A DNA stretch of 64,000 bases from Escherichia coli. GTDB lineage: Bacteria > Pseudomonadota > Gammaproteobacteria > Enterobacterales > Enterobacteriaceae. The position numbers are program-made. The stretch lies in assembly GCF_003334405.1 (NCBI RefSeq), contig NZ_QOWM01000001.1; one strand, given 5' to 3'. This document shows positions 27,501 to 33,500 of this stretch, piece by piece (within the stretch, counting starts at the first letter, position 1; the number at the start of each line of letters is the position of its first letter).

Positions 27501-30500
27501 TTCATGAGGAAGTGTTAGCCCCATATCTTCACGGGCGACGGGGCCCGTCACAGTTTGTAGATAATCTTTCATGATTATACCTCCATTTTCTTCATTGTTT
27601 TCGAGGTTCTGTATTCCGGAATAGTGGTAACAATTGCACCGACCAGTGCAAACAGTGTTCCGATGATCGTGACCAGATAAACGCTATTGCCCAGCGATGG
27701 AATTAATACGTCAATCAATACTGATCCCAGTAACTGGCCCGCCGTTGAAGCAACCCCCAGCATCAGTAACCCCAGACCTCTGACCAAAATGGCCATTAAA
27801 CCGATAGACATTAGTCCAAGCGGGCCGCCAAGATACATCCACCAGACATCTGGTAATTGAACAGTGACGTGCCCTAATGCGACACGAATAGCTAGCGCTG
27901 TGCCTAAAACACAAAATCCAACGATGAAATTCTAGGTGATTGAAACCAGCATGGATCCCGTAGCTTCAGCTACTTTTGCATTTCCAGCGGGCTGCCATCC
28001 TGCAAGCAAACCAGCTAAGAACGGAAGAATGGCAAGTAAGATGAAAGAGGTAGAATGCCACTGAGGTGACACAACAAAAATCGTAGCAATAACCGCAAAT
28101 AATGCACCGATGATGCGATAAGGGGTAAAGTATTTTTTCTCGTCGACACCGATACCAAAGCGATCGCAAAGTAAACCAGACAGCAATAGCGCGGAGATCA
28201 GTGCGGTTTGAAACGTTGCGACCCCGAGTGCGCTGGCTGATGCGCCTTCAGAAAATACCACCATCGCTCCACAGAGACCGGCAAACCAGTTCCAGAGAGG
28301 AACTTTTCGGTTTTTAATCAGAGAAGGAATTGCCGCAAATTGTTGCCGGGTTTCTTTTCGCGCCATAATAATAAAAAACATCACGACTAAACCACTGGCA
28401 AAGGAGATAACTGCGCATGCATTACCATCCTGTAACCAGTGACCTAATTGACCATTCACCGCTGATTGCATAGGGGAGAGCATACCCGCAAGAATCGTGG
28501 CAAGCATCCATAAGGGAGTTGAGTACTTATTCTTTTTCATACATCAATCCTTCTATTATAGTAAATGGAGTAACTGGAGTTACCCCATTATTATTATTAT
28601 CTTGCAATATGAGTCAGTATATTTACCCACAACGCGGTATAGAACGGCCAGGACATAAACTGCTGTGTACCCCAGTGCGGTGAACAGTCACTCATAAAGC
28701 AGGCTATTTTCCCGTTGTGATAGTTACCAAAGACCAGTAATGGAGCGTTGTTTATTGTTAATACCACCTCAGCATTTTCTTTAGCGATCGCCCGGTTATA
28801 ACCTAGGAAAAAAGGATATTCAGAGAACCCTTTAATAACTGGATGTTCAGGTTGTGATGGCTGTGCAATAACACCCTCTGGTTTTTCGACACGATCGTCA
28901 CCATCTAACATCGTAACCGGGAGCACATCAGCCAGAACTGTATTTTTATAATTGGCTTTTGCTTCAATTCCCATGAATGAGAGATAGCCGCCAATCATCA
29001 ATAACCCACCACCGTTATTCACATATTCTTTAATCAGTTCGAGAGCGTTTGGTTTTATGCGAAGCTGATAAAAAGTATCATTTTGTAGCAGGAAAGTATT
29101 ACTACCAATATCACTAATAACGATGGCATCATATTGTTCTAACTGTGCCACATCTTCAGGGAAGGCAATTTGTACCGTATGTGCTGGCATATAGGTGACA
29201 TCTACCTGACTATTTTTCAGACACTGGAGTAACCAGGTCGCACCTTCTTCATATTTACTTGAGGTAAAACTGTCATATCCTTTTGAATGAATCATATGAA
29301 TATGCCAGGATTCCCCAATAAAGAGCACTTTTAGTGATTTTTTGGTGTTATTCATTCTCTGTCCCTTCTTAATGCGTAAAAATAGTTTGCTGATAATGTA
29401 TACTCTGAATTCGATGTATCACAGATTCATGTTCAGGCATGTCGGAAGCATTGCTTGTCTCCACCGCTAGGGATGCAAAGGCGCTGGCATAACACAGTGC
29501 TGATTCCAGTGATTTTCCTTTCGCAAGTCCTGATGCCAGAGAGCCGTTAAACGCATCCCCGGCTCCTGCCGTATTTTTAACGACCGCTGGAAACGCTGGC
29601 GAATGAATGAATTTTTTGCCATCAAATGCGAGCGAGCCCTTGCTACCGAGCGTGATAACCGTGTTTTTTACCCCTTTATTGTGGATAGCTTCTGCAGCTC
29701 GTTTAGCTGATTCAAGATCGTGTACGTCTATGCCGGACAGTAAACCAGCTTCTGTTTCATTGGGGGTGATATAATCAACATCCTGAATAAGTTCGTTGAC
29801 GATATCATTATAGGGTGCCGGGTTAATAATGACCGGGATACTGTTTTTTTGCGCCAATGTGATCGCTTGTTGCAGAGCGGTATAATTTGTTTCGAGCTGC
29901 AGAAGTATGACATCAGAATTAATAATCGCTTCTTTCTGAATAGTTATTTCATCGGACGACATTGTCATGTTGGCACTGGGATAGATCGCAATAACATTAT
30001 CGCCAGTACCTTCATTAACAAGGATCGTGGCAGTTCCGGTTTGCGTTTCTTTCGTTTGATAAATTATACTTTTATAAATCTTAGACGAATTCATAAAGTT
30101 GATCGCATAATCACTAAAGTGATCTGTACCTACTTTTGTTATGAAATAAACATCAGTATCGGCAAAGCTTGCTGCCAGCGCCTGGTTACAGCCTTTTCCC
30201 CCCGGTGAAAATATAAAATTACTTGCCAGAAGCGATTCTCCGATAGTGGGAAGCCTCGGCAAATAACTGATGATATCAACATTAAACGAACCAATAACGC
30301 ATACTTGACTTTTCATAGTTGAATGGCCTTTTTTTATTCCCTGGGCTGTATCATAATTTTCAAGCGCATAAGCGATTTCATTTTTCGCAATAGTATCAAG
30401 CGAGTCTAGGACGATAAAAGCACCGCCATGACATCGAGTCAGATAGCCAAGCCTGGCAAGTTCATTAAGATCTGAACGAATAGTTTCTTTCGTTACATTG

Positions 30501-33500
30501 AGGCTATTGGACAGATCGGATACTTTTACAGAACCGAATTTACTGAGTCGTTTCAATATTTCATGATGGCGTTCAAATTTCATGCTTCACCTCACTTCAG
30601 TTACGTTAATATCTATCGATGTATATTGATGTGATAATCACCATAAAGTGGCGGGGAAAAGCAAAAAAAAGCAAAAATAGCCTGAGAAAAGGTAAGCGTT
30701 AATGGAGAATCATATTGATGCTTATTTATTGGTGAGAACTACGTTCCATGGCAGGAGTTCATCAATACGGTTGGAAGGTTATTCCGGCAGTACGCTCAGG
30801 ATATGGCGCAGATACGCTTCCGGATCAATGTCGTTCAGAAGGCAAGTGCCGATAAGCCCATACAACAGTGCACTGCGCTCGCCGCCGAAGAACATAAAGT
30901 TTTTATTTCCGAGACAGATGGCACAAAGGGCTTTTTCCGCGGCATTATGTCTGCCTCCGCCTGACCGTCAACACTGTAATAACAGAGTGCGCCCCACTGA
31001 TTCAGTACACAGCTGAACCATTCTCCCAGTCTGGATTTTTGGATAGCGTGGCATTTTTCTCCACCATGCATGCAGTGAGTCCAGTAACAGTTTGCTCTTC
31101 TTCTGCCTGACCACAAGATGTGCTGGACTGGTAAACGATGGGGATACCTGCTTACGCGAGAGCAATAAGTGGCTGGCCACAATTCTCGGTACAAAACTCT
31201 GCTGAATAGCAGCGATTTTCCCAGCGTGGTGCGTCGTTTGCATTTTACTGGTTCTAAGTTAACAATTATCTGTTCACTAATGACTACTCTAAAAACTTGT
31301 ATCAGGACTATCACTTATTTAAGTGATATTGGTTGTCTGGAGATTCAGGGGGCCAGTCTATAAACTTTTTACAAAAGGATGAATGCAGAAGGTTACTCTA
31401 ATGGCCAGAGTGATGACAATGATGGTCAGACGTTGACCTGCAGAAACTGCATTTTAATTGGTCTATAAAGTCTGCAAGAGGAATCAGGGTCAGATCAGTG
31501 AGTCTTATCGCGGCCCGAAGCTATGACTGAAAGAAGGCTGGATACAGAATTGCAACAATTTGGCAATGTCAGAACACAGAAGCTTTGCAAGCAGGTGAAA
31601 GGTTATGTCTAGCAAAAGGAGTATATCAGAATACATCTACTGATGTACAAAACACAACAATAGCTTCATGATATATAAATACGTGATGACGAGTGGTACT
31701 CCGCATGGTTATTTAACTTCTCAGCACCACTAATGATCCTGAGCAACTTCGTATTTGGGCCATTGCCATGGAGTAGAAAGCTGTGTCTGAGAATGCAGAA
31801 TTTGAGAAAAGAATTCGCTTTCTTGGAGAGCTTCTGAAAATGGCACGCTAACAACGTTTTGTTAAAAAATGTGAATCACTTGCCGGGGCTGCATTTTCTA
31901 TTCGAGGAGAATGTTGACGTAGATATTACAGAAATCTCAGCGCATCAGGATAAACTGCTACCTTAGGTCAACCACCAAAAGAAAATACAATACGTCCAGT
32001 TTGTATGCCTTTAATAACACATCTTCTAAATGTTGAAGAATTATCCCGCCTGCTGAAGAACGTTGCTCTGAGTGTGATAAACCTTTTTATTCTTGATGAT
32101 GTCAGCGAGAAGATGGAATATATCCCCGACTGGGTCGTGGTTACCCGGTTAAACATCTGGTGGCGCTAATAAATCTGGCAAGTCACATTCTGTTGAATGC
32201 TGTGACAGTGCCTTACCGAGAGAGCGAAATTGTGGTGTTCTAGTGCATAGTCGCCACCATTCCGGATAATTCTATTGCGTTGTTTTACAAGTTCTTTTAC
32301 AGCGCAGATCTGTCGCTGACGTTGAATCAATAGCCTGGATTTCAGAACACAATGCCCGTTTGCTGGTTGGTCCGGCAGTAGCATTAATTCATTATCTGAA
32401 TGAAATGTGTCAATCCACAGAAACCGCTGTCAATGACGCATTTTGTCGGACGTTAACACGAGAAAGTCTGGCTATTCCGTAATGCCATCTTATTTCGTAA
32501 TGGATTGAGAATGCTGGATTTTTAATTATATTACGCGCAGTATTAATCGCGTAAATGTTTTGCGGTCAGCAACGGTGGGGGATCCATTGTTCTGTTCAAT
32601 GAATACCATCATACATTTGAATCAGGAGTCGGTATGATGATTTTGGTGACGGGGGGCGCACGGAGCGGGAAGAGTCGCCACGCAGAGGCGCTTATTGGGG
32701 ACTCTTCACAGGTTCTGTATATCGCTACCTCGCAAATCCTTGATGATGAGATGGCTGCACGGATAGAACATCATCGGCAAGGCCGCCCGGAGCACTGGCG
32801 CACAGTGGAGCGCTGGCAACATCTTGATGAATTAATTCATGCAGACATTAACCCGAATGAGGTTGTGTTGCTGGAATGCGTTACCACAATGGTGACTAAT
32901 CTGTTGTTTGATTATGGCGGCGATAAAGACCCTGATGAATGGGATTATCAGGCGATGGAACAGGCGATTAATGCTGAGATTCAGTCGTTGATTGCTGCCT
33001 GCCAACGTTGCCCCGCAAAGGTTGTATTAGTGACTAACGAAGTGGGAATGGGGATTGTGCCGGAGAGTCGTCTGGCACGACATTTTCGTGATATTGCCGG
33101 GCGGGTAAATCAGCAGTTGGCCGCTGCGGCAAATGAAGTATGGCTGGTGGTTTCTGGTATTGGAGTAAAAATCAAATGAGTAAATTATTTTGGGCGATGC
33201 TCTCATTTATTACGCGTCTGCCTGTACCGCGTCGCTGGTCCCAGGGACTGGATTTCGAGCATTATTCTCGCGGTATTATTACTTTTCCTTTGATTGGATT
33301 ATTGCTTGGCGCGATTAGCGGGCTGGTCTTCATGGTGCTGCAGGCATGGTGTGGCGCACCACTGGCGGCACTGTTTAGCGTGCTTGTGCTGGTGCTGATG
33401 ACCGGGGGATTCCATCTGGACGGCCTCGCTGATACCTGTGATGGCGTATTTTCTGCACGTAGCCGCGATCGCATGTTGGAAATCATGCGTGATAGCCGTT

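Follow-up and report, generated by a model that had tools for sequence, protein, structure and literature searches.

Does a bacterial protein that begins like a DeoR-type regulator and continues as a complete ribokinase serve as an enzyme, as a regulator, or as both? The question is raised by an open reading frame (ORF) of the rikA type on the minus strand (29369-30583, 404 aa) of a 64,000-nucleotide stretch of Escherichia coli DNA (RefSeq assembly GCF_003334405.1, contig NZ_QOWM01000001.1). This whole stretch is called the window, all positions refer to it, and the genes and promoter elements of the rikA cassette lie on its minus strand. By membership, the rikA product is a PfkB ribokinase-type kinase and an orthologue of Salmonella RikA. 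Taking the evidence below together, we favor, by a modest measure, the view that it is a sugar-responsive autoregulator and kinase, probably accompanied by a second, kinase-only isoform that starts at Met90.

Domain architecture of the rikA product

The ORF starts with ATG and, as read in the window, has no internal stop. In the Pfam search, residues 5-56 (30416-30571) matched HTH_DeoR (PF08220, E 4.9e-15), and residues 92-382 (29438-30310) matched the PfkB kinase domain (PF00294, E 3.1e-64), while the top NCBIfam match to residues 3-61 was an AgaR-type helix-turn-helix (HTH). Between them, residues 57-89 (30317-30415) form a variable linker, predicted to be disordered, which holds the lysine pair K84-K85 and the codon for Q81 (30341-30343). 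The AlphaFold model of the 404-residue protein has a mean predicted local distance difference test (pLDDT) of 86.6. It shows a confidently modelled winged helix at residues 1-57 (block-mean pLDDT 75-92) with the expected succession of helices (H) and beta-hairpin strands (E), namely H2-16, E18-20, H21-28, H32-44, E49-51 and E54-56, then a disordered linker of about 30 residues (60-89, pLDDT below 50), and an ordered kinase from residue 90 onward. The original prediction, which placed an HTH and a kinase in one ORF, is thus borne out by annotation with hidden Markov models. It had also proposed that an enzyme takes the place of the effector domain of canonical DeoR regulators, and this agrees with the Pfam search, in which DeoRC (PF00455), the effector-binding and oligomerization domain, gave no match and residues 92-382 were PfkB. 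The rikA product therefore has HTH_DeoR and lacks DeoRC, the second defining feature of the DeoR family.

To evaluate the kinase, the protein was compared with its closest solved structure, E. coli RbsK (1GQT/1RKD), to which residues 94-380 align with an E value of 3.5e-51. The residues N101, D103, G128-G129-K130, N133, A185, I187, I198, I200, E231, N275-E-T-E278 and G340-A-G-D343 are all kept, their RbsK counterparts being N14, D16, G41-G42-K43, N46, A98, I100, I110, I112, E143, N187/E190 and D255, so that every ribose-contacting and catalytic residue checked in the pairwise comparison with 1GQT is identical. The GG, NETE and GAGDAF motifs noticed earlier are real and intact in this alignment: GGKGCN is encoded at 30185-30202, NETE at 29750-29761, and GAGD at 29555-29566, with the codon for the catalytic D343 at 29555-29557. 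The GG-K, NETE and GAGD motifs are also invariant across the homologue alignment. With the catalytic aspartate and the GAGD anion hole in place, the active site is not degenerate. The curated equivalog thresholds of NCBIfam were missed, narrowly for the ribokinase family TIGR02152 (279.4 bits, cut-off 299.65), the score for NF008353 being 251.4 (cut-off 341).

The published Salmonella orthologue

The fusion of HTH and kinase is already known, having been published for Salmonella and annotated in RefSeq, where the window's protein is WP_000667430.1, "PfkB family carbohydrate kinase", and newer labels for the E. coli gene read "ribokinase" or "rikA: ribokinase RikA". The Salmonella Typhimurium protein STM3547 was named RikA by McCormick, Jabbar & Escalante-Semerena (Mol Microbiol 2026; PMC13432705), who report that it supports growth on ribose and phosphorylates ribose in vitro, that D343 is essential, and that its kcat/Km is about ten-fold below that of RbsK. 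The same report remarks on the 90-residue extension with its PROSITE DeoR signature, describes the conserved rikA-STM3550 neighbourhood, and suggests some as yet unknown substrate (PMC13432705). Comparison of the two proteins gave 80% identity over all 404 residues, and both have the DeoR HTH, Met90 and D343; the downstream genes (orthologues of STM3548-3550) and the promoter block described below are also common to both. Phosphorylation of ribose by the E. coli protein is predicted by analogy with this 80%-identical orthologue.

The Salmonella work also bears on the size of the product. Expression from the gene's own 278-bp leader, with a C-terminal His tag, is reported to have yielded only a ∼35 kDa protein and not the 44.7 kDa full-length form, with or without arabinose (PMC13432705). 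The band, which was identified by mass spectrometry of a tryptic fingerprint, has the size expected from a start at Met90, and thus from a protein without the HTH, and a construct of residues 90-404 complemented, giving growth on ribose (PMC13432705). The idea of a single polypeptide therefore stands for the ORF, which is open over 404 aa, and is in question at the level of the protein, where the Salmonella product reported is ∼35 kDa only.

Conservation of the fusion across genera

Homologues were collected to determine how widely the two domains occur together. Among 120 close database homologues, 108 were full length, the others being fragments or gene calls without the N-terminus, and each of the full-length homologues listed carries both Pfam domains. 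Orthologous DNA was then recovered, one protein's locus at a time, for 15 loci in at least 13 genera: E. coli, Salmonella (two paralogues), Klebsiella, Budvicia, Providencia, Moellerella, Hafnia, Orbus, Gilliamella, Pectobacterium, Rahnella, Acerihabitans, Superficieibacter and Citrobacter. At all 15, a single frame runs open across both domains, without stop or frameshift. A search of 1.84 billion cluster representatives found about 20 more 50%-identity clusters that match the fusion end to end, beyond which the matches are ordinary ribokinases of about 310 aa. A profile scan of genome contigs with generic PfkB peptide patterns returned nearly all ordinary ribokinases, and 3 fused loci.

This distribution bears on the possibility that an error of sequencing or assembly has joined two genes into the ORF, for which a stop or frameshift in the linker would be the telling sign. 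The linker has neither in the window. Some E. coli strains do carry a split allele, with an HTH ORF of 80 aa and a kinase ORF of 315 aa, but the split is a single C-to-T nonsense change (Q81*) in DNA that is otherwise collinear and 99.2% identical. Since, in addition, many complete genomes match the window at 100% identity over 6.6 kb and the fusion is found in many genera, a join artefact has practically no chance of being the explanation.

Selection on the HTH and the start at Met1

The evolution of the HTH-coding region was examined next. In three moderately close pairs, the HTH codons showed proportions of non-synonymous (pN) and synonymous (pS) differences of 0.12-0.14 and 0.45-0.69, with a ratio of non-synonymous to synonymous divergence (dN/dS) of 0.09-0.19, and non-synonymous divergence was as low as in the kinase. 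Across 97 full-length homologues, the commonest residue at a position had an average frequency of 0.63 for the HTH, 0.68 for the kinase and 0.40 for the linker. Twelve HTH residues (R5, V21, V30, E33, T34, R36, D38, L39, L42, R50, G53 and G54) were invariant, and I9 and A55 were 99% conserved. The start codon of Met1 is also well marked. The Shine-Dalgarno (SD) sequence GAGGTG (30588-30593) lies 4 nt before the Met1 ATG, and GAGGT stands 4-8 nt before the first ATG in 15/15 orthologues (as GGGGT in one and AGGGT in another), with a calculated anti-SD pairing of -5.7 to -9.2 kcal/mol in the 10 orthologues computed. Furthermore, the more distant fused homologues (34-47% identity) mostly have no Met at the HTH-kinase junction, and in them the long protein must therefore be the functional product. 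These observations argue that the HTH is a translated domain under purifying selection. Selection on the HTH, the conserved SD and the homologues without a junction Met together make a vestigial or untranslated extension very unlikely.

These findings must be set against the reading favored in the published report (PMC13432705), in which the gene encodes only a kinase and truly begins at Met90, the 89 codons before it being an artefact of annotation or the untranslated vestige of a regulator. That reading accounts for the recovery of the ∼35 kDa C-terminally tagged product alone from the native leader and for growth on ribose with RikA 90-404 (PMC13432705), and Met90 does align with the starts of stand-alone ribokinases. 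It does not sit well with the low dN/dS and low non-synonymous divergence of the HTH, with its twelve invariant and two nearly invariant residues, with a frame that is open in 15/15 loci behind a strong conserved SD at Met1, with a predicted transcription start upstream of Met1, or with the distant fusions that lack a junction Met. We regard it as highly improbable. Whether the N-terminal 89 residues are ever made is left open in the published account (PMC13432705), and the evolutionary and promoter evidence presented here argues that they are. For annotation, the 404-aa gene model should not be trimmed to Met90 on present evidence.

Met90 as a candidate internal start

The in-frame ATG of Met90 (30314-30316) is a candidate internal start for a kinase-only isoform of 315 aa. 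Met fills the junction position in 91 of 108 homologues, against a conservation of 15-48% at the linker positions beside it. Where the junction residue is Val, the three readable codons are all GTG, in genes that use GTG for 14-55% of their Val codons. Met90 aligns with residue 1 of many stand-alone ribokinases, and it is the first ordered residue of the kinase fold in the AlphaFold model. The evidence for Met90 as a real second start is suggestive, not conclusive. We also considered whether Met90 might be a family-wide feature, and rejected this, as most fused homologues at 34-47% identity have other residues there. A separate promoter inside the HTH-coding region, which could give a short mRNA of its own, was looked for on the minus strand with a sigma-70 consensus scan, and none was found, which, the scan being crude, is a weak negative.

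The ∼35 kDa species might arise differently, if only the full-length fusion were translated and the linker then cut, within the cell or after lysis, the species being a proteolytic fragment and internal initiation playing no part. Omptin-type proteases cut at dibasic sites, and the linker, disordered over residues 60-89 in the model, holds the K84-K85 pair 5 residues before Met90. Between a fragment released there and the Met90 product, the difference would be about 0.5 kDa, too little for sodium dodecyl sulfate-polyacrylamide gel electrophoresis (SDS-PAGE) to resolve. In addition, the SD-like sequence at Met90 is not significant, and the identity of the band rests on the tryptic fingerprint, the available text of the report describing no N-terminal determination (PMC13432705). 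Proteolysis, however, would not explain why the junction Met (or GTG-coded Val) is far better conserved than its surroundings, and the K-K pair is not kept in other genera. We consider it unlikely.

A conserved promoter block and a candidate operator

The DNA upstream of the fused gene consists of one conserved block amid otherwise unalignable sequence. Fourteen promoters were aligned on an invariant TCAC, and no gaps were needed. The block contains a CRP-like site, the 22-mer cttTATGG-tgatta-TCACAtca (30627-30648), with the core TATGA/TATGG-N6-TCAC(A/T), in which the right-half TCAC is invariant in 14/14 promoters. Downstream of it, TAnnnT occurs 27 nt after the A preceding TCAC in 13/14 promoters and 26 nt after it in the remaining one. 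The background frequency of this pattern is 0.0375 per position, and identity across the DNA in between is only about 30%. In E. coli it supplies the predicted -10 hexamer TAACGT (30603-30608). The centre of the CRP-like site lies 29.5 nt upstream of the -10 in 14/14 promoters. In class II CRP-dependent promoters the site is centred at -41.5, and the 29.5-nt spacing corresponds to this geometry. No usable -35 was seen by eye, and the sigma-70 consensus scan reported no site at this promoter.

Eleven nucleotides upstream of the CRP-like core stand two tandem direct repeats of roughly 10 bp, which in E. coli are perfect 10-bp copies, TTTTTGCTTT twice (30658-30677, predicted -81 to -61). This tandem pair is unique within the 64-kb window. 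In the aligned promoters, both copies change together by clade, from TTTTTGCTTT twice with operon type (a), defined below, to ACTTCCGTTT twice in Pectobacterium and TTTTGTTTA twice in Acerihabitans. Because the fused gene is the only gene common to all these operons, the repeats are the best candidate operator for its HTH. In the diverged E. coli allele, C-to-A at 30671 converts the first repeat from TTTTTGCTTT to TTTTTGATTT, and a second change lies just upstream, at 30683; the candidate operator is therefore polymorphic within E. coli.

The original prediction had pointed to a palindromic operator within 30584-30700. This was not found, as the repeat search gave no conserved long palindrome in that interval, and the one that it did report, weak and overlapping (30603-30632), is not kept in other genera. 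No known riboswitch or leader was matched when 26000-32600 was searched against Rfam with E values up to 1. Two other readings of the conserved block were tried and abandoned. In one, the invariant ATCAC would pair with the GUGAGG of the ribosome-binding site and occlude Met1, but among the sequences folded only those of E. coli and Hafnia support this, and in the others the pairing partners are changed or missing. In the other, TATGGT-N4-ATCACA would be a -10 and start site. It has no usable -35, and TAnnnT lies in register 27 nt downstream. A CRP-like class II site is the better fit for the conserved block.

Upstream of rikA in E. coli, the only sigma-70-like match is TTCTCA-18-TATGAT (30709-30738, minus strand). 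It is located between an IS66 remnant and the conserved block, is not kept in other genera, and may be fortuitous or a promoter associated with the insertion sequence (IS).

Operon context

The fused gene was proposed to be the first of its operon, and it is indeed the first of four co-directional genes, separated by gaps of 13, 56 and 2 nt. The second gene (28597-29355) encodes a GATase1-like protein orthologous to STM3548 (PDB 2GK3), and the third (27575-28540) is a pseudogene for a DMT_YdcZ-type transporter, with an in-frame stop at 27932-27934. The fourth (26538-27572) encodes a phosphotriesterase-family (PTE) amidohydrolase that is a close homologue of Proteus Pmi1525 (PDB 3RHG). It is followed by a GC-rich hairpin (26504-26530), which is likely the end of the transcription unit and separates it from a ggt fragment.

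The fused gene heads the operon in all cases, and three operon types were found. Type (a) combines it with GATase1-like, DMT_YdcZ and PTE genes, in E. coli, Salmonella, Klebsiella, Budvicia, Providencia, Moellerella, Hafnia and Orbus, and this cassette occupies a different chromosomal site in each host. In type (b), from Pectobacterium and Rahnella, the partners are a DHDPS-type aldolase, DUF386 and an MFS transporter. In type (c), from Gilliamella and the second Salmonella paralogue, they are a nucleoside hydrolase and a nucleoside/MFS transporter. Types (b) and (c) share the promoter architecture of type (a). Type (c) makes biochemical sense for a true ribokinase, and the partners in type (a) have known structures and obscure functions.

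State of the cassette in E. coli

Many complete E. coli chromosomes contain the region 26000-32600 at 100% identity, and in NZ_CP062895 it sits between a CP4-44-like element and cobUST. The 5' part of rikA was detected in 1987/5426 complete genomes, and of the 1988 records that matched, 1415 share at least 99% identity with the window and 573 fall at 95-99%. The diverged allele examined has C-to-T at 30343, which changes the Q81 codon from CAG to TAG and splits rikA into the 80-aa HTH ORF and the 315-aa kinase. RefSeq lists such copies as pseudogenes, "ribokinase RikA, internal stop". In the window strain it is the transporter that is interrupted, leaving ORFs of 202 and 87 aa, also a RefSeq pseudogene. 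The diverged allele has G instead of A at this stop and an intact transporter gene of 321 aa, and the transporter is also intact in the one Q81* strain annotated across the cassette. Because Q81* copies keep the transporter and the window strain keeps rikA, different cassette genes have been inactivated in different strains. In one strain the PTE gene carries an IS3 insertion.

The cassette is bounded by an IS66 remnant and a degraded ISL3. The former is a remnant of an IS66-family transposase on the minus strand (30779-31117), about 100 bp upstream of the conserved promoter block. At the other end, on the plus strand, a frameshifted 3' fragment of ggt (gamma-glutamyltransferase; 26206-26498) abuts the PTE gene. 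The Salmonella cassette adjoins an intact ggt, and the E. coli island thus seems to have brought along part of a gene that it once adjoined. Compared with Salmonella, the E. coli copy is at another chromosomal place, between the CP4-44-like element and cobU, and differs in its IS remnants, its ggt fragment and its transporter pseudogene. These flanks point to horizontal acquisition, followed by erosion.

Erosion could have gone far enough that the locus in the window strain is a remnant of a horizontally acquired cassette, in which the fusion may still be expressed and controls no working pathway. This would be compatible with our preferred reading of the ancestral function. The transporter stop at 27932-27934, the IS66, ISL3 and ggt remnants at the flanks, the occurrence elsewhere in E. 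coli of Q81* rikA with an intact transporter or of IS3 in the PTE gene, and the presence of the gene in only 1987 of 5426 complete genomes all speak for such decay. On the other hand, the window strain retains intact copies of rikA, the GATase1-like gene and the PTE gene as well as the entire promoter block, and the allele type with intact rikA (at least 99% identity) is the commonest, at 1415 of 1988 records. We therefore find such a remnant doubtful, though less so than proteolysis as the source of the short product.

Other features of the window

Just upstream of cobU, the IS66 remnant (30779-31117) is joined at ∼32140-32480 by other debris, the segments comprising the IS66 remnant, an IS4 fragment and a truncated "cobalamin biosynthesis protein" gene, which are scars of cbi gene loss and of island insertion. 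The CP4-44-like element (15565-23168) carries yeeW, a frameshifted cbtA toxin gene, an intact cbeA antitoxin gene, yeeT, yeeS and an antirestriction gene, as well as a patatin-like phospholipase gene adjoining a truncated RdcB-family gene. A prophage-like segment at 1-10939 encodes an integrase, a LexA-family repressor, an Arc-family protein, an antirepressor, a ClpP-like protease, a Panacea-domain protein and a tailspike-like "head-binding domain" protein. A large inverse-autotransporter/Ig-like adhesin gene (46383-54364) is in pieces through a frameshift and an internal stop, and a copy of IS2 lies at ∼57072-58300.

A proposed enzyme-regulator

The mechanism we propose begins with rikA as the lead gene of a mobile four-gene cassette for a kinase, a GATase1-like protein, a DMT transporter and a PTE-family hydrolase. 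Its transporter being a pseudogene, the copy in the window strain is in partial decay. Transcription would start at ∼30595-30597 from the class II CRP-type promoter, and an mRNA with this start would carry the strong Met1 ribosome-binding site. The 404-aa protein probably dimerizes through its kinase lid, as RbsK does, and the full-length dimer may bind the pair of 10-bp tandem repeats that immediately precedes the CRP-like site. Closure of the kinase, driven by sugar and ATP, would alter DNA binding, and the substrate of the kinase would thereby set the response of the operon. The protein could be a repressor or an anti-activator, as the analogy with most DeoR regulators suggests. Purifying selection on its HTH, its place at the head of every operon and the conserved promoter with a candidate operator add to the plausibility of this regulatory reading. 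The 315-aa kinase-only product probably arises from the Met90 ATG, which would be the ancestral kinase start and would yield the species seen in Salmonella.

Several observations weigh against this proposal. DNA binding and operon control by the RikA HTH are putative, and the promoter and its transcription start (near 30595-30597) are predictions. The left half of the CRP-like site, TATGG/TATGA, departs from TGTGA, and only 8-15 of 22 positions match the 22-bp consensus. The T-rich repeats could instead be an UP-like element or the site of another factor. With respect to the second isoform, the SD-like AAGG before Met90 is not above chance for a Lys/Gly-rich peptide (synonymous shuffle in 15 orthologues, combined P 0.14), and we therefore dropped it as independent evidence. 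Anti-SD pairing is weaker at Met90 than at Met1 (-3.2 vs -9.2 kcal/mol in E. coli, -3.4 vs -7.8 kcal/mol in Salmonella), and the junction Met is confined to a subfamily of at least 45% identity and lost in more distant fusions. The cassette shows relaxed selection in E. coli, as seen in the transporter stop, Q81* in rikA and IS3 in the PTE gene. Finally, the sole product reported as detected in Salmonella, even from the native leader, lacks the HTH (PMC13432705).

If both forms are made, one ORF might supply a scarce HTH-kinase, which would sense the sugar in its own active site and act on the cassette promoter at the tandem repeats beside the CRP-like site, and an abundant catalytic isoform from Met90, in the manner of a self-titrating trigger enzyme. 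Mixed dimers of the long form and the kinase-only isoform could then tune or cancel DNA binding. We put forward this extension tentatively and consider it a possibility that is more apt to fail than to hold. If it is true, the self-titrating design would be conserved in an enterobacterial subfamily and re-used atop at least 3 sugar/nucleoside operons. If the HTH is active, these proteins would be compact sugar-responsive regulators with a PfkB kinase in place of the DeoR effector domain, and what they sense could be the occupancy of the active site by substrate, or its turnover, instead of a bound metabolite.

Comparison with known systems

E. coli RbsK (1RKD/1GQT) has the same fold and, at every position checked, the same ribose-binding and catalytic residues, but has no DNA-binding domain. 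RbsK is controlled by a separate LacI-type repressor, RbsR. DeoR, GlpR, AgaR, UlaR and FucR resemble RikA in their HTH_DeoR N-terminus and in the location of the gene beside presumed sugar-catabolic targets. In contrast, their DeoRC domain, which serves in sugar-phosphate binding and oligomerization, is missing from RikA, where a catalytically competent kinase takes its place.

A second fusion of this kind is YeiI of E. coli K-12, which also has a winged HTH and a PfkB kinase in one ORF (HTH_24 at 1-48, PfkB at 58-348). Its gene lies beside nupX-rihB, a nucleoside-hydrolase/transporter neighbourhood like that of RikA operon type (c). It differs from RikA in its HTH family, in its short linker, and in its kinase, which is 22% identical and closer to pseudouridine kinase. 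YeiI, an uncharacterized sugar kinase, arose by a fusion of its own and poses the same question of enzyme or regulator.

Trigger enzymes and enzyme-repressors include BirA, NadR and PutA, and the ROK repressors NagC and Mlc. RikA is like them in concept, a metabolic enzyme or enzyme-like domain linked covalently to a DNA-binding domain, with transcription set by the turnover or occupancy of substrate, an activity that in RikA is putative. Its PfkB fold is different from the actin-like ATPase fold of the ROK proteins. Nested in-frame isoforms that lack an N-terminal domain occur in Tn5 transposase and its inhibitor, in ClpB, in IF2 and in CheA-L/S. As in those systems, the shorter form of RikA would still be able to oligomerize with the long form, with internal initiation in RikA suggested by the size of the Salmonella band and by conservation of the Met90 codon.

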